A stretch of 64,000 nucleotides of DNA from Dictyostelium discoideum (GCA_000004695.1 CM000151.3:544001-608000); one strand, 5' to 3'; numbered from the stretch's first letter, positions 13,800-53,179 are shown. Translations and numbers: made by a program. Notes: generated by a model from the sequence alone, not told the origin.

Positions 13800-16700
13800 T
13801 TATTTTTCAAATCTTTTCATTTTGGCTAATCTTTTACTTAATTGTTTTTCCAAATTTCTTTTATATAATAAAAATGAGACAGCGCCAATAACTGAAAGAA
13901 ATACTACACCACCAACTACAGAGCCAGCAATAATGGCTGTTTTTGATGAATATTCCTCTTGATTTCCACAATTTGTTGGATTAAATTTAACCAAAACTTG
14001 AAAGTCAGGATCTATCAAACACTCCTTTGTGCAATGGGGTAATTGTAAAGCAGTGATTATTGAGTCCTTTGTTTTATTTATTACTAATGTATTTAAGAAT
14101 GTACTTCTACCATCTGATAATGCACGTGATATAATTCTACCAATTAATTGTTTTCCATTTTTTTGAATTTTAATATAATTTGAATATTGATCTTCTTGAT
14201 TATCAATATCAATTTTATTCTTATCAATTATATTACAATTATTATCATATTGAATTTCATCATTATCATCATCACCATCATAACCATTGTTATTATCTGA
14301 AACTGATGATTCAAATGTTAATTGAAGTGAATTTAATGATGTTTGATAATGATAGTTTTTAATTGAAATTGAAATTTTAATTGAATTTTCATCCAATGTA
14401 AAATTAATTCCTGCAAAATTTGAATTTCTTTTAATTTTAACTTCTTCTAATGTTGCAGTTATTAAACAATCTTTATTATTATCTGATAATATGGTTTGAG
14501 TGAAAATTAGAGCTGGATTACCTAGAGTTGATTTTTTTGTTAAATTCCAATTACCTTTTAATAAATGATTTTTAATAATAAGATTATTTTGATCAATTTC
14601 TAATAATGATAAAATATTAATTTGATAATTTGTATCTTGATTAATAATTGTTGTATCACCATTATCAGAGATTGTATTATTTGATTTTGAAGGTGGTAAA
14701 ATACTACTACAATCATATCCTTGGAATCCATTTTTACAAATACAAATTGAATTTATACAATCACCATTATTTATTGATGTGCATCTATTTATACAATTAT
14801 TATTATTATTGTTATTGTTGTTGTTGTTATTTGAAATTGGTAAATATTTATAAATATTTGTAAAATTGTATGTAGTACCATCAATGATTATTGAAATTGA
14901 TACAATTCCTTTACCAGATTGAGCTATACAATTAATCATTTCAAATGAAGTTGAATGTAATGAACATTGTTTACCACCAATATAAACTTCAAATTTTGAA
15001 GAAGAGTAACCAAAAAACCCATACAATGTTGTGTTTCCACCATTTTCAGTTGTTTCACCAATTGCTGATATTGAAATGTTGGCATATTCACATTGTACTC
15101 CATAATAGTTGTCAGAGCAAATACAACTATCAATAAAACAATATCCATTTAAACCACAATCAATAGGACAATCAGTTGGTGTTATTTCACTACAGTCATT
15201 ATTTGAATTTGGATTATTACAATCACAAATACCAGTATTATAATCACATTCACCTTCTGGGTAATTACATTCATTTGGACATTGAGGAATATTTGTAATT
15301 TTATCAATACTTAATTCATCAACATCAAATATTACTACCCTATCATCAATTATCATATATATATGATATGGACCTCCACCGCTACCACCACTACCACCAC
15401 CACTACCACCAGAAATTGCAAACCGACCAATAATTGAATGGAATGTAGTACTAATAATATCAATTTTATAATTATTGATATATATAAAAACTAGTGATGA
15501 ATTGTATGTAAAGTATTGTCCTTTAATTTCAATTTGATCTTTTGAAGTTAAAATTGAAATTGGGTTTGGTTTTGCTAATTGATACCAAGTTGATAAATAA
15601 AATAAATTATTTACTAAACTTTTTGTAAAATTAAATTCTAAAATTTTCTTTGAATAACCAAATGAATAATCTATTTCATAAATTAAATATTTTTCATTTA
15701 CAATATTATATTCTGAATCTCTAGTATAAAATTCAATATCATTAGTTTGAATTGATTCCCATTCAAACCCCAAATCACTTCCAACCAAAAATAATTTATT
15801 TGATTCAAATATAATATTTGGAATTAAAGTTTCTATTATTATTATTATTACAAGTGTTAGTTTTTATAAATAAATAAATAATTAAATTATTAATAATAGT
15901 AAGTAAAATTTACTGCAAGTATTATAAATGATCGGAACATCAGATACAGTAGAGCCAATAATATTGTTTTTAAAGCTGATATCCTTGAAATAACCTAAAA
16001 TTATATTATTTTTATTTTTAATTATTTTATTTTATTATTTTTATTTTATTTATTGATTAAAAAATAAACTTACATGTAAAACAAGAGGGTAATGATGTTT
16101 TATCTATTAGAGTACTATACATAATAAGATATCTTAAATTGCAATATGATTTATCTAGAGTACCTGTTATTGGATTGTTTGAAACATCTCTAAAATTTTT
16201 CATTAATTGTTTTTTTTTAATTAATTATATTTTCAATTTAAAAGATTGGTATTTTTTATTAATTTGAAATTTTTAGTTTTATAAAATGGAATATTTACAG
16301 TTTTTTAATATGAGAATATCTTTTACTCCACAACGGTAATGGGGATTCAATTCCATTATCTGGAAAATATCTTTTTTATTTTTAAAAAAACAAAAAAAAA
16401 AAAAAAACAAAGGGTTTGGTAAGATTATATTCAATGGTATAAAAATAATAGTAACCTTTTTTTAAATTTACTTACATAGATTCATAAAAAATTTGTGAAA
16501 AATCTGGTAAATTTAGAAAATGGCTCGATATTTTCCTTAATAATTGTAATAATAAAAAATAAAATATAAAAAAAAAAAATAAAAAAAACAAAAAAGAAAA
16601 TTTAGATTAAAATTTTGTATATATACTTATATGTATATATATAGTATAAATCAATTATTACATTATAGAATTTGAAGTATTTGATAAAATTGGATATGGT

Positions 16701-17080
16701 TTAAATGGTATAGTATTATTAAAATTGAAAAAAGGGTTATCTCCAATATTTAAATAATTCAATTTATTCAAGTGAGAAATGTTAACTATACTATTTGCAG
16801 TTAATTGGTAAAGGCTAAATTCTAAATTTTCTAGTGAATCGGATGGGAAAATAGGGAAAAAAAAATCTTTGGCACTTTTTCCAGTCACCACACTTTTTTT
16901 TTGTTTTTTTTTTTTAATGTTAGAAACTAAATTAAAATTGATTTAGATAATGTTACATTATAATTTACTTACATTTTTTTAATTTTATTGTGTGTTGAAA
17001 AGTTTAAAAAAGAATTTAAATCTGGAGAATTTAATTCGTAGGTTCTAAAACATAGTAGTTTTTTTTTTTTGAATGAATAA

Positions 17081-17113
<33 letters not shown>

Positions 17114-17688
17114 TGTTCAAAAATTGTATTAGTAATTTTAAAATTATTCAAGTTTTTTATTTTCAAATTAATACCTACATTGAAGGAATTGATACATTGG
17201 TAAGATCTGGTATTTTCTGAATATTAATCAATGTTCTTTTATATAAAAGATTTAAATCTGTTTAGTTAATATAAATAAAAATAAAATATAATAAAAACAA
17301 TTAAAATAAAAACGACGAAAACTATTAATAGTTACAAAATACCATTATCTGTATTGGGATTTAAATAATAATTATTTAAAATTTCCAAACTTTCACATTC
17401 AATTTTTCTGACTTTTAAGCATAATAAAAAAAAAAGATTTGTTTGTAATATTATTATTATAAAGATTATTACCATATAAGTCTTTTATTATAAATATAAA
17501 TAATTACACAGATGAAAAGTTTGCAAGAGAAGTGATCTTAAAAGTGAAACCACAACTATAATAATCTATAATAAGAGAAATTTTACTTGAAACACTTGGT
17601 AAAATTAAATTATTTATGTTATCAACATTGAATAAAGTACTTTGAAATTTTTTTTTTTTTTTTTAAATTAAATTGATTAGTAAACAAT

Positions 17689-17723
<35 letters not shown>

Positions 17724-18135
17724 ACTCACATTTCTGTATTATTTTTTCCTTTAAAAGATGTTATATCTGGATCAACAGAAGAGTTATCGATTTTTATTTT
17801 TTTTAGATTATAAAAACAACTGATGTGATTTGAAGTAAGTGGTGGTGAGAGACTTGGACTCTGAAAATTTCTGATTTATTTTATTTTTTTAATTTTGATA
17901 TAATCAGGATTAGATTTAATTAAATTAAATTTTTTTTTTTTTTTATTACTTACAGAGATATTAAAAAACCCCCATCACATTTAATAGAGGTCGAATTACA
18001 AAATAAAAAACTCGAGTTACCATCATTTGATACTACACTTGACATTAAATTAAAGGTTTCATACAAACTATGAATACAATCATCTTGAAATATATGAAAG
18101 ATTTATTTTTTTTTTTTTTTTTTTAGTTATTACCA

Positions 18136-18166
<31 letters not shown>

Positions 18167-18261
18167 ACATTCAGTTTCTATTAATCCATTAATTTGAATT
18201 GAATTTCCAAATCTTTGATTTAAAATTGATAAAAATAATATAATAAAATATAATTGAAATG
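13800..18261 (-). CDS. Type I transmembrane cell-surface protein with N-terminal signal peptide, plant-type LRRs, cysteine-rich/EGF-like modules, an IPT/TIG-like domain, a single TM segment and a short basic tail. It is a multi-exon gene (at least 10 small 5' exons plus a large 3' exon 15833..13800) and a divergent paralogue of the 39-53 kb cluster.
   Basis: Exon 1 (about 18261..18176) encodes the signal peptide 'MKKSFQLYFIILFLSILNQ' with donor GTAAGT. Small exons at 16200-16080 encode 'NPITGTLDKSYCNLRYL...LPSCFTC|gtaag', which matches 'ITGTIDQSWC...IPSCFSCYF' of the paralogues. ORF 16658..16891 contains LRR text. The large 3' exon holds EGF-like 'CPIDCGLNGYCFIDSCICSDNYYGVQCEY', the IPT-like block, 'LSDGRSTF', 'LPHCTKECLIDPDF', the TM segment 'IIAGSVVGGVVFLSVIGAVSFLLY' and the tail 'KRNLEKQLSKRLAKMKRFEK'. 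Confidence 0.7.
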
Positions 18262-18909
18262 ACTTTTTCATTTTCATTTTTTTTTTTTGCATTAATTCAA
18301 AAAAATTAAAAAAAGATTGATTTTGAATAAAATAAAAAAAAATATTTTATTCAAAACCAATCATTTTTTTAATTTTTTTAATTTTTTTTTTTTTTTTCAA
18401 AATCATCTTTGGATATTTTCAAATTTTATTATTTTCAAATAAAATTGATCAGAATAAATATCTGAAAAAAAAATTTTTTTTTAATTTTAATTTTAATTTT
18501 TTTAGATTTGAAATAATTAGATTTCAGAATTTAATAATATTTTTTTTTTTTAATTCGGGATTGAATTTAAAAATAAACATTATTTTGGTAATATTTTTTT
18601 TTAATTTTAAAGGAAATATTTTAATTTTTATTTTTATTTTTTTTTTAATAATTTATTTTTATTAAACGAATGTTGAAGGTTTCCACAATTCCTTCAACAA
18701 TAAATTTATTATTTTTTTTGGAAATTTTTAAAAATTTGTTTTTTTTTTATTTTTTTTTTTATTTTTTTTTTTTTTTTTTTACTTTGGATGTTTTAGAGGT
18801 TTTGAAATTGGAGATAAAGTCTTTCTTTTTTTTCTTCTCCTTTTAATTTTTTATTATATTTTTTTTTTTTTTTTGAAAAAACAAATAAAAAAAAATAAAC
18901 AAATAAAAA

Positions 18910-18944
<35 letters not shown>

Positions 18945-19063
18945 AATTTTCAGTTTTTTTTTTTTTTTTTTTTTTTTTTTTCTTCGATAACAATAGTAAC
19001 AATAATAATATTAAAATAGTTCTAATCTATTGAAGAGAAGAGATATATTGGTGTGATAAACCA

Positions 19064-19777
19064 ATGAGTACAAACTCGACACCAAGAAAGCAAAAGCTTT
19101 CCAATTCAAAATCATTACAAAATTCACCAATCTCTCCAACTGTTAAAAAAACAAATTCCTTCCCTTTAGGAAACAATATACCTACAAATATTAATAGAAG
19201 TAAAAAAGATAAAAATAATAACAGTAATAATAATATTAATAATAATAATAGTAATGGTATAGGCTCAAACACTATTATAAATTCGACACCAATTGCAACA
19301 ACACCAGTCCCACCACTTCCATTCATCCATTCATCTTCATCTTCATCTTCATCTCCATCTCCATCTTCATCTTCGTCATCACCATTTCCAAAAGCAAAAA
19401 AATCACCATCACTTTCAATTAACCAACAACAACAACAACAACCACAACAACCACAACAATCACCACAATCACAACAATCACCACAATCACAACAATCACA
19501 ACAATCACAACAACAACAACCTCAACAACCACAAGAACAACAAGAACCTTTGCCAAATTTATCGTTTTTACGAAACCAAGAACCTGATAAAAATGTTTTG
19601 CCTACATCTAGAAAACGACCACCATCTGTAATGCCTAGTACACCAAATCAATCATCAAATTCTTCATCACTGAATTCTTCATTAAATTTTTCATCATCAA
19701 ATTCTTCACCATCACCAACATCAACACAATCTAATAACAGTAGATTTGAAACAAGGAGCCAAAATGATCAATATGAA

Positions 19778-19853
<76 letters not shown>

Positions 19854-20419
19854 TAGAATGTATAGTTATTGATGATGATGATGATGATGATGATGATGAG
19901 GGTAATTCCATTAAATCAACACATACATCAACACAATCTACTCCTATACGAGATAGAAGACAAAGGGATAATAAATGGACAATAAACCCTCTCCCACAAT
20001 TTCAAAGAGAAATTATTGATGTTGATACACCTTCTCCACCAAATGAATCATTATCAATAGTTTCACAAACTACAACTAATACTATTACTGATACCACTTC
20101 AATTCAAACACCAACATTAATTCGACAATCATCATCATTATTATCATCGTCATCATCATTATCACCATCAACTACTTCAACACCATTAACTCAAAATAAT
20201 ATTAATTTACAAAACGCTCAAGTAATTGCAACAATGACAGCGCCAATGGAAATTGAACTACCAACAATTGTCCAACTTGAACCATTATTTTCTTCTGAAT
20301 TCACAACATCAACTCAAAATTTATTTATTCAAACACCACCATTTACTTCAACTTTAACTCTACCTACAACTACAGCTCAAACATCACAAACTCTTTTTAC
20401 AATCCAAACTTCACATGAT

Positions 20420-20457
<38 letters not shown>

Positions 20458-21310
20458 TAAAAATAAAAATAAAAAAGAAATTGAAAAAGAAAAAGAAAAA
20501 CTACGAGAAGCTTTAAAACAAAAATTAAAAGAATATGAGAATGAAAATGAAAAAGAAAGAGAAAAAGAGAGAAAAAGGGAAAGAGAAATAGAGATAGAAA
20601 GAGAGAGAAAAGAAAGAGAAAGAAAAGAAAGAGAAAAAGAGAGAAAAAAAGAAAAAGAGAGGGAAAGAGAAAGAGAAGAAAGAGAGAGAAAAGAAATAGA
20701 AAGAAAAGAAAGAGAAAGAGAAGAAAGAGAAGAAAGAGAAAGAAAAGAAATAGAAAGAAAAGAAACAGAAAGAAAAGAAATAGAGAGAAAAGAAATAGAG
20801 AGAAAAGAAATAGAGAGAAAAGAAAGAGAAAGAAAAGAAAGAAAAGAAAGAGAAGAAAGAGAAGAAAGAGAAAGAGAAGAAAGAGAAAGAAAGGAAAGAG
20901 AAGAAAGAGAAAAAGAAATAGAAATGGAAAGGGAAAAAAAGAAAGAAAAGGAAAAGGAAAAGGAAAAGGAAAAGGAAAAGGAAAAGGAAAAGGAAAAGGA
21001 AAAGGAAAAGGAAAAGGAAAAGGAAAAGGAAAAGGAAAAGAAAAGAAAAGAAAATGAAGTAGAAAATGAAATAGAAAAAGAAAGAAGAGAGAAAAATGAC
21101 TCATATATGGTTTTAAATTATCACCATAGTATAGATGATCATCATTCAGAATCAGAATCAGAGTCTGACTCTGACCAAGACTCAATTTATTCAATTTCAA
21201 CACAAGAATTATCTTCTGTTATTAGTGATAATGATTTTTGCGATAGTGATAATGAAAAGGTGGCAAATAATAATAGGACCGTTGGTGAAACATTTTTAAA
21301 TGATAGTAGG

Positions 21311-21342
<32 letters not shown>

Positions 21343-21554
21343 TAATAATAATAAAAAAATTGAGAATGATAAAAATCAATTAATAGAAAGAGAAAGATTA
21401 ATTAGTGCATTTAACGATAAAGCATTTCTTTATGCACTCGATACAATTCGTGAAGTATTAGGTGGTATTGATTTTAAATTAAAGGTATCAAAAGAACAAA
21501 TCATCGAAATTAGCACGAATGCTAAAAAACCTTTAAATATATTATCTGAACCAG

Positions 21555-21597
<43 letters not shown>

Positions 21598-21599
21598 CC

Positions 21600-21649
<50 letters not shown>

Positions 21650-22153
21650 ACAACAAAAACAACTACCACAACAAATAATACCACTACCACTACAGCTGAA
21701 ACTGAAAAACCAAAAGAAGTATTTTTATTAAAGAAACCAATTAAAATACCATATGGTAGGGATTGTAAAAAAAGATTGATTAGAAGATTTCATGGAACAT
21801 CACGTAATCCATTATTTCATAAAAATTTAGAATCAACTCTTAAATTATTAAAGAGAGCGAAATTCGATTGGGCAAGTATAGAATTTGATACTAAATCTTA
21901 TTTAATGAATTGTAATTGTAAAACAGTCTGTCATAAATCTGAAAGAATGAAAGATAATCCTACAAATAAACTTCAAAATAATAATAGAAATAATAATAAC
22001 AATAATAATAATATTATTAATAATAATAATAATAATAATAATAAAAATAATAATAATAAAAATAATAATAACAAAAATAATAATAGAAATAATAATTCAA
22101 TTGCAAAGAAAATTGGAACTAATAATAATAATAATAATACTACTATTATTAAA

Positions 22154-22214
<61 letters not shown>

Positions 22215-22227
22215 AAAATAATAATAA

Positions 22228-22258
<31 letters not shown>

Positions 22259-24504
22259 ACAATTGTTAAGAAAATTGAAACTATAAAAAAAGATATTAAT
22301 AAAAAACCAACCAAAACAACAACAACAACATCATCATCATCATCATCAACATCATCATCAAATAGTTTAACAGTTATAAAGAAACCAGTTAAAAAAATCA
22401 ATGGTAGTCAACGTATTTGTTTATTTGAAGATGATTTTGATGTTGGTATTGGAGTTCCAGTAACAACAGGAACATCAGAAACAACTACAACAAGAGCATC
22501 ATCAATTAGAAGGAAAATGAATATTTCAAATATTTTTGATGATTTTACAAAGAAACCAAGACAGAATAAATATAATGAAATTGAAATGCCAGATTTATTC
22601 GCATCAAAAGAGTGCAACTATACATTGGAACAACAAGCACCATTCATTAGAGCACAAAAACTATTGTTGACACAACAACATGAAAATAATTTATATAATG
22701 GTAAAAGATTTATGAAATATGATGAATGGTTAGATTTATATCATGGTGAAATGAGATCATCAATACAGAATCCAAAAGTGTTGAAACACTATATAAGTTT
22801 CTCTCAAGAGGTTTATGGCGAAGCCGAACCAACACTATTAAGACACTGGATTCATCTTGGTTTAATTAAACCAACCGATGTATTTTGTGATATTGGTTGT
22901 GGTATTGGCAATGTCTTGTTTCAATTGGCTGCTCAAGTCGGTTGTAGAGTAATAGGTGTGGAGATCAGAAAAGACCTTTATGATATCTCTCAAAGTATGT
23001 TGGAAATTTATAAAAAGCGCTCATTGGAATTAGGTTTACATCCAAGTACTCAACAAATTAAAATCTACAATTGTGATGTCAAAGGTTCACTAGAGTTTGA
23101 TTTCTCTGAACCCAATGTATTCTTTATGCACAATACTTGCTTTGGTCCGGAATTAGAGATTTCAATTATGGAATTATTTAAAAAATATTCGAAACCAGGT
23201 ACAAAAGTTATAACAATGAAAACACTTTGTCCACGTTTTAAACCTTCCGATAAAAAAACTAAACCATGGGGTATCTTTAAGTATCCCTATGAAAGTTATG
23301 AAATGGAAGAAGGTTCTTTATCTTGGAGATCCGCTACAAATTGTAGTTTTTACTCTTTTACAATCGATGATAAAGATTCTGATATTGTTACTGACCAAAC
23401 TCATTTAAATAGAGTTATATTATCAACTCCAAAGAAAAAACATTCAAAATTACAATTATTTTCATCTTCTTCATTACCATCATCACCACCGTCATCATCA
23501 TCATCATCATCACCACCAAATATTGCTACTAATACTACTACAACTACAACAACTACTACTACGACTTCCCCTTCATCAATTTCATTACCATCACCATATT
23601 TATCACCATCTAAAAAAACACCAAATAGTAATAAGAGAGACAGAAGTGATATTGATAATAGTAACTCTGATGATGGTGATGAAAATAATAATAATATTAA
23701 TATAAATAATAATAATAATAACAGTAATAATAAACCAATTAAATTGAAATTATCAATGGATCATTCAATTGATAATCAAAGTAATAGTGAAAGTAGTGAT
23801 ACTGATGTTGAATATATGCCATGGTCTAAAAGAAATAATAGAAAAAAGAGAAAATCACTTTCATATTCTTTGGATTCATATTTATCTTCTAGAATATCTC
23901 CATCATTATCTTTAAGTACCTCTTCTTCTTCCTCTTCCTCTTTAGATTCTTCTCCATATTCATCACCACCATCCTCTTCTTCTTCTGATAATGAAAATGA
24001 TGATGATAATGGTGATGATGAAGATGATTCCTCTTCATCAAATGATACTAAATTAAAAGAAAAATTACTTTTAATGAAAAATAATGAAAAGATTGGTGGT
24101 GCACCACCATTAACTAGAAGAAATGCTAATAGTGATACAAATAAATTGGTACAAGGTTGTTATCAAAGTTTATCATCTTATGCTCTTCCAAAAGAAGAGA
24201 GTCAAATTCATAAATTACAATTACAAGCTAAACTATTAGAACATAAAAACAGTTTAGTATTAAAACATCAAAAATCAATTCATGACCAACAAAAGAGATT
24301 ATCAAGAAAACAAAAAAAACTGGCAAAGAAAAACAAAAAGAAAGAACAGCAATTACAAGCTCAAGCTAAAACTATAAATTATAATAATAATAATAATAAT
24401 AATAACCAAAATGATAACCAAGTTAATCATAATAATTTGAACGAAAATGAAATTAATACTGATTTAATTAATGGTTATAATAATAATAATAATAATAATA
24501 TAAT

Positions 24505-24535
<31 letters not shown>

Positions 24536-24601
24536 GATAAGGATGATGATAAGGACAGCAACAATAAGGATTATAATAATATTAACGATAATAATAAATA
24601 A
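19064..24601 (+). CDS. dotA: DOT1-family histone H3 lysine-79 methyltransferase (1845 aa, single exon) with very long low-complexity flanks
   Basis: The catalytic core (nt about 22600-23330) reads 'FSQEVYGEAEPTLLRHWIHLGLIKPTDVFCDIGCGIGNVLFQLAAQVGCRVIGVEI' (DOT1 motif I / SAM-binding) and 'VFFMHNTCFGPELEISIMELFKKYSKPGTKVITMK' (the FxNNFxFGPE-type motif). The flanks are poly-N, poly-Q, poly-S and a roughly 200-aa E/R/K-rich block. The symbol is inferred from family plus organism, not from a database hit. Confidence 0.8.
20946..21040 (+). repeat. (GAAAAG)n hexanucleotide repeat of about 16 units, encoding (KE)n inside dotA
   Basis: Direct read. It translates to KEKEKE... at the end of the E/R/K-rich block. 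Confidence 0.9.
21553..21650 (+). repeat. (CAA)n repeat encoding a polyglutamine tract of about 33 Q inside dotA
   Basis: Direct read. Confidence 0.9.
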
Positions 24602-39195: not shown

Positions 39196-39476
39196 ATGAT
39201 TAAAATATTTTTTTTTTTCATTTCAATTTTATTTTTAATAATAAATTTCAATTTTTCAAATGGAATCGTACCACCAATTGATGAATTTAATGCATTACAA
39301 AATCTAATTTTAAAGTTTAACCTCACAACGTTGGAAAATAAACCAATTACTGAAATTTGTAGTAATGATGTATCATGTAATCAAACAACTGGGTCATTTA
39401 TTATGTAAGTTTTTAAGATTTTTTATTTTATTTATTTTATTTATTTTATTTTATTTTTTTTAAATTGTGTATTAAT

Positions 39477-39522
<46 letters not shown>

Positions 39523-42500
39523 ATGGTAATAATTGGAAATAAAGAATATACACCAATTGGAGCAGAACTTATCCCATCGGATATACTTGGTTTTCCAAAT
39601 GTTTATAGATATGATTTTAGAGATTTACCAATAAGTTTTGAGTTTTTTTATTATAAAATTCAAAATGTGGTAACAATTACTTATAGAAACTTTACAGGTA
39701 TAAATGAAATAAATCAAACTTTACCAGGTTATAGAGAGATGTGAGTTTTTTTTTTTTTTTTTTTTTTGTGTTTTATATATTTATTTTTTGAAAAAACTAA
39801 CAGAAATTAATTGTTTTTTTATTAAAAAAAAAAGGTTTATAAGTTGTGATTGTCTTGATGGTTCAAATTTTAAAATGTCATATATTAATAAAAATACATC
39901 ACTTTTTCAACTTGATAAATCATATTTAAATTTAATTAATGATTCTCCAAATTTAAATAAATTATATTCATTAACATTAGGATTAAACAATCTTCCAAAT
40001 ATGTCAAATTATTATTTTAATAGTATGATTTTTTATTTTGGACCAAATTTCGATGTTAATTCATTTGGTTTAAATTATAAAACTATAAGGTCAGAGGTTA
40101 AAGAATTTAAATCATCAGATCCGGAAATGTATTTTCCCATTGAAGCTTTAGCAGATCAGGAAGTTTCATTGGTTGGAGGTTATACAATACGTTTTGATTT
40201 AAAATTTAGTCGTCCACAAGATAATAAGCTATTGAACATTTCAAATCAAAATATTCGTTTTATTACTTTTTCCAACCCTGGGAAATTTTTTAATATTGAA
40301 AGTAATTCATTACTTCAATTCCCTCTAATTCTAAACTATAATTGTAAACTTGTTGTTGAATATGGAACGATTTCTCAAACTGAACCAATTTCACAATTTG
40401 GTAATCCAAAGATTATTTCAATGAAACATTCAATTATTTCAGGTGATTTAGGTAAATATCAATTATCAAATCCTAATCAAGAAAGAATCTATGATTTTTC
40501 AGGTAATTCTATAACTGGAACAATTGATCAATCATGGTGTCATGCTATTTTACAAATTAGAGATAATAATATGACTGGTCCAATTCCATCATGTTTTTCT
40601 TGTTATTTTAATTCTCCATTAATTGATTCATCACTTGGTTCATACATTACTTTTTATGGAGCTTTCGAGGGAAACAACTTTACAAATTTATATCCCAATT
40701 TACCTTGTACAACATTTAAACCTCAAATTGAAAGACAATCTAACACAGCTTTAATTATTTACGGTAATGATATTGGTTTCAATGGAGTCTTGTATAAAAT
40801 AAATGGAACTATTAGTTGTAAAACCTATGAACCAATTGAATATGGTAAAAAATTTCTATTTACTACCAATAATAGCATTTCATTTGCCCATGTAAATTAT
40901 TTATCAATTAATTTTTTTTATCCATTTGATAAGGATTATTATTTCCCATTAATTTTTAGATCACCAATTATTGACTCTGTTTATTTTTCAAATGGTAAAA
41001 GTTTACAAGTTGATGGGTCTTACTTTTCAAGTTATTTGGGTCATGTCACACAAACAATCACTATATCAAATTATACATTTGAAATTTTTGATTCAAGTGA
41101 TTTCTTTTCAATTCAAGCAAATTCAACAAAATTAATTCCAGCTTCTTTAACAAATAAATTCGAATTATTAACTTTAACTACAAATTCAAACATTAAAAGA
41201 GTTTATGTAGATTTGGGTTCAAGAAATGATAAATTATGTAAAAATGATTGTATTGATAATGATCATGGTATTTGTAATTTAAATTTAGGTGTTTGTATAT
41301 GTTTAGATGATTTTATTGGTGATGATTGTTCACTTCCAAACTTTTTCATTACATCAGTTCAACCATCAACAACAAATGGTGGTGAAGCTATTTTCTTTGG
41401 TTCATTTTTAGAATTAACAAATAATATTTCATTAACAATTGGCGGAATAGATTGTCAAATTACATTAAATTCAATAGATACAATTAAATGTATAGCACAA
41501 CCTGGTAATGGTATTAAAACTATAATTTTAAAACAAAATGATAAAATATTCACTGGTGTTGGTATTTATAAATATATTGAATTATCAATACCATGTCCAA
41601 ATAAATGTTCAAATAATGGTATTTGTAATTCAACAACTGGAATTTGTAAATGTAAAAATGGATATACTTTATATGATTGTAGCGCATTAATTAATTTAGA
41701 TAATGGTTTAGGCAATAGTAATAATAATACAGGCGGTGGTGGTACAAATACAACAATTGACCCAGGTACAGGTTCAACAAATATTACAGATTCTCAAACT
41801 AATTTCCAAATTTATTTAAAATCATTAATTGAAGTAGATATTAATAATAATGAAGTTAAATCTTATTCATTATTAAAGAATTGGATATTTAATAAAACTG
41901 AAAATGAAATTGAACCAAATAAATATATATTAAAACAACAATTAGTAAATAATACTACTCCAAATTCAAATGGATGTATAATTACATCAACAATTGAAGA
42001 AATTAAAGATAAAAATGGTAAAGAATTTACATTTGCGGGTACATCATTCGTTGTTTCAAGTGGTTCAATTAAATTTACAATTTCAATTGCAAATTATACA
42101 TATCAAAGTAATTTAAATACTTTAAAATTAGAATTAATATCATCAGTTGATAAAATCGATAAAATTAATAATTGTAATTCAAAAGACACAGAAATCGATA
42201 CAACCAATGTAAATGATATATCAACATTTAATTATATCAAAATTTCAAAAAATAATAAAATTTTCTCTGCTAGATTCATTAATAAAGTATTGTCCGATGG
42301 TAGATCAACATTTTTTACAACAAGCGCAAGAAATGATTCAAATTCAATTATTGTATCATTAAATTTACCTCATTGTATTAATGAATGTTTAATTGATCCA
42401 GATTTTTCAGTTTTACTTACAAATGATTTCAAATCTGAATGTGGTGATGATGATTCATCTCGAAAATGGTTTTTACCTGTTGTAGTAGTTGTACCAGTTG

Positions 42501-42607
42501 TAGGTGTTGCTTTTATGATAATCATAATGTTTTTGATTTACAAAAGAAGTACAACACTAAAAATTATGTTACATGCTACAAAATTAAAAAAATTTAATCA
42601 CAAATAA
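39196..42607 (+). CDS. LRR/IPT/EGF type-I membrane surface protein, paralogue A. Three exons: 39196..39404, 39522..39740, 39835..42607.
   Basis: Signal peptide 'MIKIFFFFISILFLIINFNFSNG'. Donors at|GTAAGT and at|GTGAGT. Exon 3 has plant-type LRR text 'ITGTIDQSWCHAILQIRDNNMTGPIPSCFSCYFN', 'FEGNNFTNL', 'FPFDKDYYFPLI', two EGF-like modules ('CKNDCIDNDHGICNLNLGVCICLDDFIGDDCS' and 'CPNKCSNNGICNSTTGICKCKNGYTLYDCS'), the IPT/TIG-like 'ITSVQPSTTNGGEAIFFG...IKCIAQPGNGIKT', 'LSDGRSTF', 'LPHCINECLIDPDF', the TM segment 'LPVVVVVPVVGVAFMIIIMFLIY' and a KR-rich tail. Confidence 0.8.
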
Positions 42608-42997: not shown

Positions 42998-43418
42998 ATG
43001 AATTCAATTTTTTTAATTTTTTTTTTAATTTCTATCAATTTTGGAATTTTCTCAACACTATCACCACCACAAAATGAATTAAATGCATTATATAGCCTAA
43101 TAAACAAATTTAACATTAAAATGTTTGGTGATAATCCATCACCAGAATATTTTTGTGTTGTTTATTATTGTTCCCCAATAACAGGTTCAATAATTGGACC
43201 GTAGGTCTCTCTATTTTTTTTTTTTTTTTTTTTTTTTTATTATTTCTGGTTATTAAAATTTTTTTTTTTTTTTTTTTTTTTAAATAGGTTTAAATTAATT
43301 GGGGATCCAAGTAATCAATCTAATGAAGTGATGACTCACTCTGATTTAAAGAACTTTACAAATATATCTTCAATGTATGTAAAAATAAATTAAAAAAGTT
43401 AGGGCCAATAAACTGATT

Positions 43419-43475
<57 letters not shown>

Positions 43476-43676
43476 AAGGGAATTAGTTTATTTTAAAATT
43501 GATGAAGAATTATTATATATTAAATTAAATAATGTTGAAAAGGTTGGTTTTATTTTTGTAAATGGGGTAAAAGAAATAAATAGAACCTTGGCAGATTATA
43601 AAGAGATGTAAGTAAAATTTATTTATTTATTTATTTATTTATTTTTTTATTTTTCAAATCCTAATACTTTTATTTT

Positions 43677-43720
<44 letters not shown>

Positions 43721-46511
43721 TAATAATATTAGAGTAATTGATAGTAGAGATTTAGAAAATAGTACATTTAAACTATCATATATTAATAATGATACTGCAA
43801 AATTTCAAATAAAGAATTCATTTTTGGAATTTGAAAATGATTTACCAGATTTACCATCATTAACAAATTTATTGTTGGAAATTAGAAGTTTACCAAATAT
43901 TTCTCAAATAAATCCTTACCAAGTTTCGTTTAGATTTAGTCCAGATTTTGATATTGGATCATTAAAATTAAATTTTCAAACTTTAAAATCACAATTAATA
44001 ACTATCTTAGATTCGAATGATTCAAATTTAATATATCCATGTGATTTCATAAAAGATCAATATGTTGGACAAAATGAAAAGAGTACTATTAATTTTGGCC
44101 TTAAATTTTTACCACCAATTGATGGTCATGTTATTGATCTATCAAATAAGAATATTGAATCTATATCATATACCAATGCTGGTAATGCTTTTAATATTGT
44201 TATAAATTCAAAATCAACATTCCCTATTTTGGTTGGTTATTATGTTAATGTTGCCCTTTTAAAAGGTAATATATCACAAACTATACCACTTTCACAATTT
44301 GGTAGAGGTGAAAGTATTTCAGTAATAGATTCAAAAATCAGTGGTGATTTGGATACTAATTATAGACCAACTGATGGAGTTGTAAGAAGACTTTATGATT
44401 TTTCAAATAATTTCATTACAGGTACCATTGATCCATCATGGTGTAATGCTCAATTAATAATTAGAAATAATAAAATGAGTGGTGAAGTTCCATCATGCTA
44501 TTCATGTTATTTTAACTATCCAATGCAATTAGTTAATAATCCAGATATTAAAGTTTTTTATGATGGATTTGAAGGAAATAATTTTACAAATTTAGAACAA
44601 AATCTTAAATGTACAACATTTGCTCCACAAATTGATAAAGATTCAGAAACCAGTTTAATTATTTCTGGTACTGATATTGGTTTCTATGGTGATAAGTTTT
44701 TAATACAAGATACTATGATATGTACAACATATCAAGTAATCGAATTTGGTAAAAGTTATAAATGTGGAATTCATCCAAGTTTTTCTTTTAAAGATTTAAA
44801 CTATATTAAAATTAATTTTAAATTCCCATTTGATAAAGATTATTATTTTTCATTAATTAATAGAGTACCAATGATAACATCAGTAACTTACTCAAATAAT
44901 AATTTACAAATTAATGGATCTTACTTTTCAAGTTATTTAGGTCATGTTCCACAAACAATTAGTTTATCAACTTTTACATTTGATATCTTAAATTCAAGTG
45001 ATTTCTTTTCTATCCAAGCAATATCAACTTTTAAAGTAGTTCCAAATCCAGGCTTCAATCTATTAACATTGAAAACAAATTCAAAGATTTCAAGAGTTTT
45101 CATTAATATGGCATCATTAGCAAATGATAAGTTATGTAAAAATAATTGCACAGATGACGACCATGGTGTTTGTAATTTATATTTAGGTACTTGTGTTTGT
45201 AATAATAATTATGAAGGTGATGATTGTTCAATTCCACAATTTTATATTACATCAGTTCAACCATCAACAACAAATGGTGGTGAAGCTATTTTCTTTGGTT
45301 TATATGGATATGACCTTAGTAATATTTCATTAACTATTAGTGGAATAGATTGTCCAATTACATTCAATTCATCAGATACAATTAAATGTATAGCACCACC
45401 TGGTAATGGTATTAAAACTGTAATTTTAAAACAAAATATTAAAATATTCACTGGTATTGGCATTTATAAATATATTGAATTATCAATACCATGTCCAAAT
45501 AAATGTTCAAATAATGGTATTTGTAATTCGACAACTGGAATTTGTAAATGTAAAAATGGATATACTTTATATGATTGTAGCGCATTATTAAATACAGATA
45601 TTGGTTTAGGCAATAATAATAACAATAATAATAATAATGGTGGTACAAATACAACAATTGACCCAGGTACAGGTTCAACAAATATTACAGATTCTCAAAC
45701 TAATTTCCAAATTTATTTAAAATCATTAATTGAAGTAGATATTAATAATAATGAAGTTAAATCTTATTCATTATTAAAGAATTGGATATTTAATAAAACT
45801 GAAAATGAAATTGAACCGAATAAATACATATTAAAACAACAATTAGTAAATAATACTTCTACAACTTCAAATGGATGTATAATTACATCAACAATTGAAG
45901 AAATTAAAGATAAAAATGGTAAAGAATTTACATTTGCGGGTACATCATTCGTTGTTTCAAGTGGTTCAATTAAATTCACAATTTCAATTGCAAATTATAC
46001 ATATCAAAGTAATTTAAATACTTTAAAATTAGAATTAATATCATCAGTTGATAAAATCGATAAAATTAATAATTGTAATTCAAAAGACACAGAAATCGAT
46101 ACAACCAATGTAAATGATATATCAACATTTAATTATATCAAAATTTCCAAGAATAAAAATATTTTCTCTGGTAGATTCATAAATAAAGTATTATCTGATG
46201 GAAGATCAACATTTTTTACAACAAGCGCAAGAAATGACTCAAATTCAATTATTGTGTCATTAAATTTACCACATTGTATTAATGAATGTTTAATTGATCC
46301 AGATTTTTCAGTTTTACTTTCAAATGATTTCAAATCTGAATGTGGTGATGATGATTCATCTCGAAAATGGTTTTTACCTGTTGTAGTAGTTGTACCAGTT
46401 GTTGGTTTTGCTCTTATTTTAATTATACTTTTAATAATTTATAAAAAAAGTACAACATTTAAAATAATACTGCACGCCACAAAATTAAAAAAATTAAAAA
46501 ATAATAAATAA
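42998..46511 (+). CDS. LRR/IPT/EGF type-I membrane surface protein, paralogue B. Four exons: 42998..43198, 43288..43374, 43479..43607, 43733..46511.
   Basis: Same architecture as A, with one extra intron (A's exon 2 is split). Signal peptide 'MNSIFLIFFLISINFGIFS'. Donors cc|GTAGGT, at|GTATGT, at|GTAAGT. The last about 430 codons are nearly identical to A and C. Confidence 0.8.
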
Positions 46512-49662: not shown

Positions 49663-49910
49663 ATGATACTATATTATTTATTTATCTTCTTTTCTTTTCT
49701 TTGTTTTTTTTCATTTGGGATTATTCCTCCTGAGAATGAACTTCTTGCTTTAAATAATATTGTACAAAAGTTTAATCTTTCAATTGGTAATCAACCAAAC
49801 CCTGATTATTGTTCAATTTTTATCTGTAGTCAAACAAATGGATCACTTATAGATACGTTTGTATTCAAAAATAAATTCTAATTATACATTTCTAAAAATA
49901 AAATTCTAAT

Positions 49911-49943
<33 letters not shown>

Positions 49944-50055
49944 GTCTTTATTTATTAGCTAATTCTATTGAATACACACCAATTGGTGCAAAGATCGCTG
50001 TATCAGATTTAAAACAATTTACAAGTGTTTCTTCAATGTAAAAAACAAAAATTAA

Positions 50056-50118
<63 letters not shown>

Positions 50119-53100
50119 TATAAACTTTTTACTTATTATTTTTTTATTTTTTTTATTTTTTTTTTCAGATTTTTAAATGGATTTGAAATTGAATATGAAT
50201 TTATTTATCACAAATTCGAAAATTGTCAAACCCTTTATTATATTGAAACTAGGGGAGCAATGGTGATAAATAAAACGTTACCCGATTATGCATCAATGTA
50301 AGTTTTTGATTTTATTTTTTATTTTTTGTTTTTTTTATTTTTTTATTAAATTAATAATATGTAATATATATTTTATAAATGTAAAAATTATTAGAAATAT
50401 TGATTGTAAAGGATTAGAAGGTACAGAATTTAAACTATCTTATATTAGCTCAAAAACACATAGTTTCAATATATATGGAGGGAACGTAAACTTTATAACT
50501 GATGTTCCAAAGCCAACATTTTTTCAAAATTTACGTTTAAAAACAAAAAACATACCAGATTTAAAAAAAATTGTATTTGAAAATTTAATTATAAATATTG
50601 ATAAAGATTTCAATACCAGTTCATTATCAGCGTATTATAATACAATTGGAGCGAAATCGACTTCACTATTAAATGATGATAGAAATAATGGACCAAATTT
50701 ACCAAGTGAATTTTTAGGTGATAGATGGGTTTCAAATGATAAATATAGGGACAATTTAGATGTGAATGGTTTTTTAGCTCCAATTAATAATGAGCAAATT
50801 GATTTAACAGAATTGAAGTATTCATTATTAGATTTTAGAAAAGCAGGTCAATTATTCAACATTCAACAAAATTCAAAAAATGTATTCCCAATTAAAACTG
50901 GAAACAGTACAACATACTTGAAATTCCATAATGGAAATATTTCTCAAATTTACCCACTTTCCCAATTTGGAAAAGCTTCATTTATCTCTGTAGTAAATTC
51001 AAGTATTACTGGTGATTTAGGCCCATATGAGCCAAATAATGGATTTCCTACAAGACTTTATGATTTTACTAATAATGCTATAACTGGAACAATTGATCAA
51101 TCATGGTGTAACTCTGTATTGATAGTTAAAAACAATAGGATGAATGGTACAATTCCATCCTGTTTTACATGTTATTTTGATTTTCCAATAATGCTAGTAG
51201 ATAATCCAAGTGCCAGTACTATTTATGAAGCATTTCAAGGAAATAGCTTTGATAATTTAAATACAAATATTAAATGTACAACTTTTGCTCCACAAATTGA
51301 AAAAATTCGAGATAAGGCTCTACATATTTTTGGTAATGATATTGGTTTCGATAGTACTTTCTATAAAATAGATGATATTGGAATATGTAGTTCCTATAAT
51401 ACTATCGAATTTGGTAAAAGCTATGAATGTATAAGTAATAATTATTCATTTAAAGATTTAAAATATATTAAATTTAATTTTAAATATCCATTTGATAAGG
51501 ATTATTATTTCCCATTAATTAAAAGATCACCAATTATTAGCTCTGTACATTTTTTAAATAATAACAATTTACAAGTAAATGGTTCTTATTTTTCAAGTTA
51601 TTTAGGTCATGTTTCTCAAACTATTACTATTTCAAATTTAATATTTGAAATTTTAGATTCAAGTGATTTCTTTACAATTCAAGCAACTCCAATTCAAACA
51701 ATTCCAATTGAAAAACTTGAATACCCTGAAAATACAAATACTTTTGATTTATTAACTTTAAATACAAATTCAAAGATTACAAGAGTTTACATTAATCCAT
51801 CTTCAATTAATGATAAAATATGTAAAAATGATTGTACTGATAATGATCATGGTATTTGTAATTTATATTTAGGTGTTTGTGTTTGTTTAAATGATTTTAT
51901 TGGTGATGATTGTTCGAATTCAAAATTTTTCATTACATCAGTTCAACCATCAACAACAAATGGTGGTGAAGCTATTTTCTTTGGTTCATTTTTAGAATCA
52001 ATCAATACTATTTCATTAACAATTGGTGGAATAGATTGTCCAATTACATTCAATTCATCAGATACAATTAAATGTACAGCACAACCTGGTAATGGTATTA
52101 AAACTGTAATTTTAAAACAAAATGATAAAATATTCACTGGTATTGGCATTTATAAATATATTGAATTATCAATACCATGTCCAAATAAATGTTCAAATAA
52201 TGGTATTTGTAATTCAACAACTGGAATTTGTAAATGTAATAATGGATATACTTTATATGATTGTAGCGCATTATTAAATACAGATAATGGTTCAGGTGGT
52301 AATAATAACAATGGCGGTACAAATACAACAATTGACCCAGGTACAGGTTCAACAAATATTACAGATTCTCAAACTCACTTTCAAATTTATTTAAAATCAT
52401 TAATTGAAGTAGATATTAATAATAATGAAGTTAAATCTTATTCATTATTAAAGAATTGGATATTTAATAAAACTGAAAATGAAATTGAACCAAATAAATA
52501 TATATTAAAACAACAATTAGTAAATAATACTGCTCCAAATTCAAATGGATGTATAATTACATCAACAATTGAAGAAATTAAAGATAAAAATGGTAAAGAA
52601 TTTACATTTGCGGGTACATCATTCGTTGTTTCAAGTGGTTCAATTAAATTTACAATTTCAATTGCAAATTATACATATCAAAGTAATTTAAATACTTTAA
52701 AATTAGAATTAATGTCATCAGTTGATAAAATCGATAAAATTAATAATTGTAATTCAAAAGACACAGAAATCGATACAACCAATGTAAATGATATATCAAC
52801 ATTTAATTATATCAAAATTTCAAAAAATAATAAAATTTTCTCTGGTAGATTCATAAATAAAGTATTATCTGATGGAAGATCAACATTTTTTACAACAAGC
52901 GCAAGAAACGATTCAAATTCAATTATTGTATCATTAAATTTACCACATTGTATAAACGAATGTTTAATTGATCCAGATTTTTCAGTTTTACTTTCAAATG
53001 ATTTCAAATCTGAATGTGGTGATTCATCTCGAAAATGGTTTTTACCTGTTGTTATAGTTGTACCTGTTTTGGGCGCAACTATACTTTTTATAGTTTTCTT

Positions 53101-53179
53101 TATACTCTATAAGAAAAGTACTACACTTAAAATTATGTTGCACGCTGCAAAATTAAAAAAATTAAATACCAATAAATAA
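49663..53179 (+). CDS. LRR/IPT/EGF type-I membrane surface protein, paralogue C. Four exons: 49663..49856, 49945..50037, 50169..50297, 50395..53179.
   Basis: Signal peptide 'MILYYLFIFFSFLCFFSFG'. Donors ac|GTTTGT, at|GTAAAA, at|GTAAGT. Exon 4 begins 'NIDCKGLEGTEFKLSYI', parallel to A ('FISCDCLDGSNFKMSYI') and B ('VIDSRDLENSTFKLSYI'). The C-terminal 430 codons are nearly identical to A and B. Confidence 0.8.

Follow-up and report, generated by a model that had tools for sequence, protein, structure and literature searches.

Here we describe gene D, which lies on the minus strand (18292..13800) of a 64,000-nucleotide (nt) stretch of Dictyostelium discoideum DNA (GCA_000004695.1 CM000151.3:544001-608000; the whole stretch is referred to as the window, and positions are counted from its first letter), together with its three paralogues A, B and C on the opposite strand. 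D is an intact, protein-coding dictyostelid member of the ComC family and encodes a type-I membrane glycoprotein. It has 13 exons and 12 introns, compared with the two or three introns of A/B/C, and seven of its introns occupy alignment columns, in the same phase, that are common to other subfamilies. Based on these data we consider it very probable that D is the gene in which the ancestral introns of the family are best preserved, and that the A/B/C lineage lost most of them by ordinary intron loss.

Gene model and conservation of D

The coding path of D runs from an ATG at 18292 to a stop at 13800 as a single open frame of 1106 codons. Upstream of its terminal 662-codon open reading frame (ORF) the minus strand offers short stop-free stretches whose frame changes from one to the next, and the model was built by enumerating the GT...AG pairs that leave the frame open. 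All 12 introns are GT-AG, 79-134 nt long and AT-rich (5-16% G+C, versus 15-30% G+C in the exons), and the donors are consensus (GTAAGT, GTGAGT, GTAATT, GTAAAT); the window itself is 16-32% G+C, with poly-N and poly-Q tracts in coding sequence. A first-pass annotation of this DNA had placed the gene at 13800-18261 and had divided its leucine-rich repeat (LRR) region into at least ten small exons. Its end at 13800 stands but the coding sequence starts at 18292, and the exon count is borne out, as the N-terminal 430 codons are spread over 12 small exons (57-231 nt) whose sizes are kept in D. citrinum and D. firmibasis. The sole ambiguous junction is that between exons 5 and 6, where donor 17335 and acceptor 17236 were chosen because the orthologues carry exons of 72 and 57 nt. 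An alternative (donor 17342, acceptor 17258), which gives a protein of 1111 amino acids (aa), was dropped.

Exon 1 (18169..18292, 124 nt) contains the ATG and the signal peptide MQKKKMKMKKSFQLYFIILFLSILNQRFG... and ends at a phase-1 GTAAGT donor; it has further in-frame starts at M6 and M8, and the orthologue models begin at the M6/M8 equivalent. Exon 2 (17954..18083, 130 nt) encodes the cysteine-containing LRR N-cap, ...YDCIHSLYETFNL...FCNSTSIKCDGGFLIS, and is followed by a phase-2 intron. Exons 3 to 10 are symmetric, with phase 2 at both ends, and each encodes one to three repeats: two LRR units in exon 3 (17730..17870, 141 nt; 141-147 nt in orthologues) and in exon 4 (17508..17639, 132 nt in all four lineages), three in exon 8 (16662..16892, 231 nt; 231-234 nt in orthologues), and one each in exon 5 (17336..17407, 72 nt), exon 6 (17179..17235, 57 nt, a short LRR), exon 7 (16973..17044, 72 nt), exon 9 (16476..16535, 60 nt) and exon 10 (16299..16370, 72 nt). 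The last canonical LRR and the start of the C-cap, LDVSNNPITGTLDKSYCNLRYL...LPSCFT, are in exon 11 (16074..16189, 116 nt), and the rest of the C-cap, CYFKDISFKNN...YNTC, is in exon 12 (15914..15994, 81 nt), which is followed by a phase-1 intron. Exon 13 (13800..15832, 2033 nt including the stop) extends from the two putative beta-sandwich domains through the basic tail.

Full-length D orthologues were found by homologue search in D. citrinum, D. firmibasis and a divergent lineage labelled 'D. discoideum', and each annotated orthologue protein was mapped back onto its own genomic DNA to obtain exon sizes and phases. All three have 13 exons with the same phases; the internal sizes in D. citrinum and D. 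firmibasis are 132/72/57/72/231-234/60-63/72/116 nt, and exons 9-11 are predicted differently in the divergent lineage. Exon nucleotide identity to D is 0.80 in D. citrinum and 0.72 in D. firmibasis, with the small exons mostly gap-free, and intron identity is 0.52 and 0.38, respectively, with variable lengths and many indels. The ratio of nonsynonymous to synonymous substitution (dN/dS; Nei-Gojobori) is 0.22-0.40, the small-exon part (0.26-0.37) and the last exon being alike, and D is under purifying selection. An independent annotation of a near-identical D. discoideum assembly (GCA_054883475.1) likewise has a 1106-aa gene at D's place. The ACTFIT annotation evidently differs a little from our D model in its start or in a junction. 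We infer that the small upstream ORFs are spliced together as exons of one conserved gene, D. Within 12-20 kb, its introns and flanks contain no Rfam family at gathering thresholds and no tRNA detected by ARAGORN.

Domain architecture of the D protein

From the N-terminus, the D protein consists of a signal peptide, a cysteine-capped LRR solenoid of ~15 repeats, two putative beta-sandwiches, an EGF domain, an IPT/TIG domain (15041-14871), a poly-N tract and a second EGF domain, a ComC supersandwich domain (14684-13992, within exon 13), a transmembrane helix (13940-13863) and a basic tail (13862-13803). The transmembrane segment (aa 1061-1086) and the 20-residue tail (aa 1087-1106) were read from the sequence. 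The domain order that the first-pass annotation gave for the four paralogues, and all of the motifs it listed, are present in D, including ITGTLDKSYC...SCFTCYF at aa 371-405, LSDGRSTF at 1001-1008 and LPHCTKECLIDPDF at 1027-1040.

The assignment to the ComC family is based on two Pfam families. ComC_SSD (PF22933) matches D at 182.7 bits (E 1e-53, cutoff 24) over profile positions 2-222/222, corresponding to aa 818-1048 of our first model of 1111 aa and lying just before the transmembrane segment, and the D orthologues score 170-183 bits. LRR_ComC (PF24141) matches the N-terminal 614 aa of the corrected D at 46.3 bits (E 6e-12, cutoff 27) as a single domain across exons 3-11 (aa 101-383, profile 2-280/288). 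This match was unreported for the full-length first D model and for the full-length orthologues P0002 and P0003, and we regard it as real but marginal in the D subfamily. In addition, Pfam LRR_1 matches aa 360-382. The two beta-sandwich families (PF24142 and PF24143, Beta-sand_ComC_1st/2nd) were not matched in D or its orthologues by hmmscan; nevertheless, residues 431-610 of D align collinearly by hhalign with the A/B/C region that bears them, and an AlphaFold model is all-beta in this region, at a low predicted local distance difference test score (pLDDT) of 44-64. The TIG domain (E 6e-8 to 2e-11) and EGF_TEN/EGF_Teneurin (1e-10 to 1e-5) are detected in the orthologues and are weak in D itself, and D carries an additional EGF-like cysteine module at aa ~613-680.

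The structural model used here is the AlphaFold model of the D. citrinum orthologue P0002 (m1b90a94259a6), which has a mean pLDDT of 66, with pLDDT ~70-88 over much of the LRR part, short strands about every 20-30 residues, and a predicted helix at residues 1035-1078 in the transmembrane region. Searched with Foldseek, its N-terminal part matches the ectodomains of the plant LRR receptors BRI1, MIK2, ERL1, PSKR and FLS2, over 415-535 columns, and also LRRC8. Further matches, to the GLMP luminal domain and to the supersandwiches of glycoside hydrolases, probably involve the C-terminal supersandwich of P0002. The two top-ranked non-LRR solved structures are 6nyq_C and 8r8q_B, chains of the vertebrate lysosomal membrane glycoprotein GLMP or of its transporter complex (E 1e-5 to 3e-6, target TM-score 0.45-0.46). 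By fold, the GLMP matches are tentatively assigned to the ComC supersandwich (P0002 ~790-1016), which suggests a possible distant structural relationship.

Relationship of D to A, B and C

The paralogues all lie on the plus strand: A (DDB_G0271634) at 39196..42607, with exons at 39196-39404, 39522-39740 and 39835-42607 and two phase-2 introns; B (DDB_G0271636) at 42998..46511, with exons at 42998-43200, 43288-43374, 43479-43607 and 43733-46511 and three phase-2 introns; and C (DDB_G0271638) at 49663..53179, with exons at 49663-49856, 49945-50037, 50169-50297 and 50395-53179 and three phase-2 introns. The A model (1066 aa) exactly matches KAM9951495 and clusters with XP_645580 (D. discoideum AX4 chromosome 2), residues 42-1065 of the B model are 100% identical to XP_645581, and all 1066 aa of the C model are identical to XP_645584. 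The AX4 RefSeq proteins of A (XP_645580) and B (XP_645581) have 996 and 1024 aa, versus 1066 and 1065 aa in the models with a signal-peptide/N-cap exon, and thus the older RefSeq models appear to be N-terminally truncated (in the regions 39196-39404 and 42998-43200). All three proteins match LRR_ComC, both ComC beta-sandwich families and ComC_SSD in Pfam.

That D is a fourth family member on the opposite strand, as the first-pass annotation had it, is confirmed by tblastn of A/B/C against the window, which matches the minus strand at 15200-13806 with ~35% identity (E 1e-62 to 1e-64). A second match, to a small ORF at 16066-16206 (38-51% identity), corresponds to exon 11, the only N-terminal piece of D found directly in this way. 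The identity of 35-40% that had been claimed applies to the C-terminal half only (~35%); over the full length it is 27-31% by BLASTP and 29% by hhalign. Among themselves A, B and C show 65-68% identity, but only about 30% to D. When compared as profiles by hhalign, the D clade and the A/B/C clade are collinear throughout (D 8-1094 versus 2-1064; probability 100, E 9.6e-70).

The LRR region of A/B/C had been described as lying in one exon, which proved incorrect: A has three exons and B and C have four, short coding exons with '...AT|GTAAGT' style donors, as in D, preceding each long ORF and placing two or three introns within the first ~140 codons. About 80% of the A/B/C LRR domain (Pfam LRR_ComC positions 57-288) is nonetheless in the single large last exon. 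Some 2.7 kb of their coding sequence, with most of the LRR domain in it, is uninterrupted where relatives have six to nine introns. D and A/B/C belong to the same family, have the N-cap phase-2 intron in common and show conserved linkage, and all A/B/C introns are of the periodic phase-2 class seen in D, while A/B/C differ in being on the opposite strand and in being without the signal-peptide intron and all introns 3' of ~codon 140.

The C orthologue in D. firmibasis has identical exon sizes (194/93/129) and the B orthologue in D. citrinum has the same structure as B. In A, one 219-nt exon (39522-39740) replaces the 93- and 129-nt exons of B/C, the middle phase-2 intron being missing, and the A orthologues in D. 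citrinum and D. cf. discoideum have the same fused exon (222 nt). These structures indicate that the extra, precise intron loss in A dates to after the tandem triplication and before the D. citrinum and D. cf. discoideum lineages split.

The D and A/B/C genes remain linked. They are about 20-40 kb apart in D. discoideum and D. firmibasis; in D. citrinum the D orthologue (ACTFIV_007734) and an A/B/C orthologue (ACTFIV_007727) are on one contig, and in D. firmibasis the D orthologue (RB653_009891) and A/B/C orthologues (RB653_009883/009886) are ~40 kb apart on one chromosome. Because both sets of orthologues exist in D. citrinum and D. firmibasis, the split between D and A/B/C predates these three species, and the duplication, as judged from the ~30% identity, is far older than their divergence, with linkage retained. 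One member of the A/B/C cluster in D. firmibasis (RB653_009883; P0016, 1532 aa) is annotated as FNIP repeats fused to a complete ComC-type protein and is probably two genes merged by the annotation.

Intron map and the ancestral state

Five group-4 subfamilies and two homologues from Cavenderia fasciculata (P0039 and P0023) were aligned with MAFFT, and their introns were placed on this alignment. Annotated 'introns' of 19-35 nt (in Cavenderia DFA_05158, ACTFIW_002653, and the P0004 and P0023 models) were left out of the intron table, and only the first intron of P0004 was used; introns of 19-35 nt are too short to be real and are probably patches for frameshifts or assembly errors. A homologue search seeded with Cavenderia P0023 found only Cavenderia paralogues, and the sample thus contains no group-2 or group-3 dictyostelids. 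Two other subfamilies are intron-rich, represented by P0021/22 from D. firmibasis (10 exons) and P0005 (nine exons). Of the Cavenderia genes, for which 10-11 introns are predicted that are mostly phase 2, P0039 is divided into 11 exons and carries seven phase-2 introns within its first 272 codons, and P0023 has eight credible introns, six of them phase 2 and in the LRR part.

The seven D introns at common columns and phases are as follows. Intron 1 (phase 1) is shared with P0021/22 and P0005, and intron 2 (phase 2, after exon 2) with A/B/C, P0005 and Cavenderia P0039. Intron 6 (before exon 7, column 288) and intron 10 (after exon 10, column 478) are shared with P0021/22, intron 8 (before exon 9, column 421) with P0005, and intron 9 (after exon 9, column 444) with both Cavenderia homologues. 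Finally, intron 12 (phase 1, after exon 12, column 559) is shared with P0021/22 and P0005. The alignment also places every A/B/C intron at a shared position: the first is the N-cap phase-2 intron in common with D, P0005 and P0039, and the second and third are found in P0021/22. In the P0004 subfamily at least one 5' intron survives, close to the N-cap. In a neighbour-joining tree D groups with P0005 and P0021/22 (88% bootstrap), separately from the A/B/C clade and the P0004 clade.

Because these positions and phases are common to D, two other intron-rich subfamilies, A/B/C and Cavenderia, the intron-rich state is ancestral, and the parsimonious reading is that the family ancestor was intron-rich and underwent differential loss later. 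It follows that A/B/C lost their 3' introns. D and its relatives form a graded intron series (12, 9, 8, 3, 2) that shows a repeat-periodic exon structure eroding from the 3' side.

The periodicity itself can be seen within D. Introns 2-10, nine in succession, are all phase 2 and each splits a codon for an aliphatic residue (L, I, V or M; the split residues are, in gene order, L, I, V, I, L, I, I, M, I, L). When they are placed on the P0002 model, every one of the nine lies among the first residues of a predicted LRR beta-strand: positions 78/79, 127/128, 171/172, 195/196, 214/215, 238/239, 315/316, 335/336 and 359/360 correspond to strands 74-81, 125-130, 170-181, 194-202, 213-218, 237-242, 314-317, 334-336 and 358-360, respectively. 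We propose that the family ancestor had a phase-2 intron in the codon of the first beta-strand aliphatic residue in many of its LRR units, and that the periodic phase-2 introns would be left over from an LRR array assembled out of symmetric exons. A BLASTP comparison of D residues 1-430 with themselves gave no internal similarity between repeats, and since the repeats have no detectable mutual similarity any exon duplication in D must be ancient.

An unlikely alternative is that the ancestor had few introns and that D, P0021/22, P0005 and Cavenderia gained theirs in the LRR region by insertion at preferred sites or by tandem exon duplication. The five D introns unique to the D clade in our sample are consistent with such gains, as is the location of all LRR introns at the same within-repeat site, which is what exon duplication or an insertion preference would give. 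However, the seven D introns that coincide in column and phase with those of other subfamilies and Cavenderia would call for many parallel gains at identical positions, the three A/B/C introns belong to the same periodic phase-2 set, and the absence of self-similarity in D 1-430 by BLASTP speaks against recent exon duplication. Genome-wide, moreover, gains are much rarer than losses in Dictyostelium, with 98 putative gains versus 643 losses (Ma et al., 2015; PMC4683709).

Several points nevertheless weigh against an intron-rich ancestor and an intact D. Introns 3, 4, 5, 7 and 11 of D are matched in none of the relatives sampled and may have been gained in the D lineage. The LRR alignments between subfamilies are only 20-30% identical, and with introns limited to one site per repeat some of the column matches could reflect register ambiguity or parallel insertion. 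In the neighbour-joining tree only 56% support is given to the node that unites the P0004 clade with the intron-rich group, and the rooting depends on the distant Cavenderia sequences. The splicing of D is itself a prediction from sequence and conservation, the gene models of the orthologues are likewise computational, the structural model is of moderate confidence (mean pLDDT 66), and the role proposed for D below is drawn from its architecture and from comC.

Intron loss in the A/B/C lineage

We now put forward a mechanism for the loss of introns from an intron-rich ancestor. In this scheme D and the A/B/C progenitor are ancient duplicates that are still linked. In the A/B/C stem the signal-peptide intron and all those 3' of ~codon 140 would have disappeared through gene conversion with a partial cDNA, which would spare the 5' end and remove adjacent introns together, and after the tandem triplication A would have lost one further intron precisely. 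The first-pass annotation had offered, as one of two possibilities, an ancient duplication after which the tandem cluster lost introns, and this is supported by the orthologues in two species and by the shared intron positions and phases. At alignment resolution the former intron sites in A/B/C are without indels, and we propose that cDNA-mediated partial loss is the most likely route. There is precedent for such a route in the 441 precise intron losses reported in D. discoideum, in which lost introns were farther from the 5' end than conserved ones and adjacent introns were lost together, and which the authors explained by reverse-transcribed cDNA acting in gene conversion (Ma et al., 2015; PMC4683709).

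The other possibility offered was a retro-processed A/B/C ancestor. Taken plainly, this would be a D-like gene copied in fully processed form, to which the present two or three introns were added later. The ~2.7 kb of A/B/C coding sequence that is intron-free where relatives have six to nine introns would fit such a copy. However, the three A/B/C introns are at the columns and in the phase of those in D, P0005, P0021/22 and Cavenderia P0039, where regain is implausible; in D. discoideum, D. citrinum and D. firmibasis alike, D and A/B/C share a chromosome or contig, which fits local duplication and not dispersed retroposition; and at least one 5' intron, near the N-cap, has been preserved in the P0004 subfamily as well. 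Whereas all parental introns are absent from a processed retrogene, A keeps two and B and C keep three. We give this explanation very little credence: because A/B/C retain ancestral introns a full processed retrocopy is excluded, and of the retroposition idea only gene conversion by a partial cDNA survives, as the mechanism of the intron loss proposed above. A poly(A) remnant or target-site duplications would not survive so old a duplication.

Least probable of all is that the small ORFs at 15.9-18.3 kb belong to a gene unrelated to the 662-codon terminal ORF, or that D is a decaying pseudogene, for although the exact D model protein is not in a 15-billion-sequence collection, no AX4 RefSeq protein for D turned up in the homologue search and exon 5 has a cluster of 31 differences from the near-identical assembly, both ideas (the first of them considered in the first-pass annotation) are contradicted by the continuous frame with consensus splice sites, the exon sizes kept in orthologues (exons 9-11 being differently predicted in the divergent lineage), the dN/dS of 0.26-0.37 in the small-exon part, the single LRR_ComC domain over exons 3-11, the hhalign collinearity with A/B/C from the signal peptide on, and the 1106-aa gene called here in GCA_054883475.1.

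The D locus and sequence variation

The window has 40 mismatches in 25.5 kb to the near-identical assembly GCA_054883475.1, 31 of which are within a 167-bp patch (17316-17482) that spans D exon 5 and the adjacent intron ends and alters six residues. At nearly all patch sites GCA_054883475.1 agrees with the divergent lineage and D. citrinum, the window version being the outlier, and neither version disrupts the D reading frame or its splice sites. The patch is either a stretch of reference-sequence error or a short gene-conversion tract.

We also considered D as a hyper-polymorphic gene of the allorecognition type, and rejected it. The best match (ACTFIW, labelled D. discoideum) is 89-93% identical, yet the whole 16.5-kb locus with its flanking genes is 86-90% identical; the ACTFIW assembly is thus from a divergent lineage, and D is not specially variable. 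Assembly GCA_054859355.1, which is labelled Dictyostelium discoideum, is 86-90% identical to the window in genes and intergenic sequence alike; this far exceeds within-species variation and looks like a cryptic or mislabelled species.

Upstream, D is head-to-head with an 1845-codon ORF (19064-24601) whose C-terminal part is methyltransferase-like and which contains long tracts of low complexity. About 770 bp (18293-19063) separate the start codons of the two genes, and D and this ORF probably share a divergent promoter region. The same head-to-head layout is found in other loci of the D. discoideum group.

Function and significance

In published tables comC is listed as a secreted and transmembrane EGF-domain protein that is found in group 4 only and has an aberrant-aggregation mutant phenotype. 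A literature search on DDB_G0271634, DDB_G0271636 and DDB_G0271638, and on comC with lagC, found no papers. From its architecture and the comC phenotype we propose, with moderate confidence, that D would most likely act at the cell surface, as a receptor for recognition or adhesion while cells aggregate and develop.

Because exons 3-10 of D are symmetric, skipping any of them would remove whole LRR units in frame, and their sizes are nearly unchanged over at least four lineages. It is conceivable, if very improbable, that the 12 introns of D have not simply escaped loss but are kept because in-frame skipping of symmetric LRR exons yields receptor isoforms with varied LRR arrays. If true, such isoforms would diversify the surface by which the cells of this social amoeba recognize one another.

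The D. discoideum genome has ~13,000 genes and, hence, ~1.2 introns per gene, so that D with 12 introns is a strong outlier. The introns of this genome total about 15,500 (PMC4683709). Together with its relatives, D provides a compact illustration of cDNA-mediated intron loss in the Amoebozoa and an example of the ComC-family LRR array as built from symmetric exons, and the gain to annotation is a full-length model for D and signal-peptide exons for A and B that are absent from the AX4 RefSeq models. The case adds a well-documented example of a process already known, in a gene family that is annotated but has not been studied, and no new kind of gene, element or mechanism is involved.

Comparison with known systems

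Relative to the ComC family as a whole, D keeps the order of domains all the way from the signal peptide to the basic tail and passes the Pfam thresholds for LRR_ComC and ComC_SSD, but it represents a separate deep subfamily in which Pfam finds no beta-sandwich domains and which carries the extra EGF-like module. In its gene architecture D resembles LRR genes with same-phase, repeat-spaced introns, such as those for the plant SERK-type LRR receptor kinases, the animal LGR/glycoprotein-hormone receptors and the ribonuclease inhibitor, which also have symmetric exons of one or a few LRRs with the same intron position and phase in each repeat. The likeness is architectural only and no sequence relationship is claimed; unlike these receptors D has neither a kinase nor a seven-transmembrane domain. 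It should be noted that the LRR model of the D clade is structurally closest to plant LRR-receptor ectodomains in the Foldseek search. With respect to intron loss, the closest known system is that described in the same genus by Ma et al. (2015). There, as in A/B/C, the losses are precise at alignment resolution, adjacent runs of introns are lost and the 5'-most introns are spared. The difference is that the reported losses were seen between D. discoideum and D. purpureum orthologues, whereas the genes compared here are ancient paralogues from one lineage of which a run of at least six adjacent introns would have been removed.

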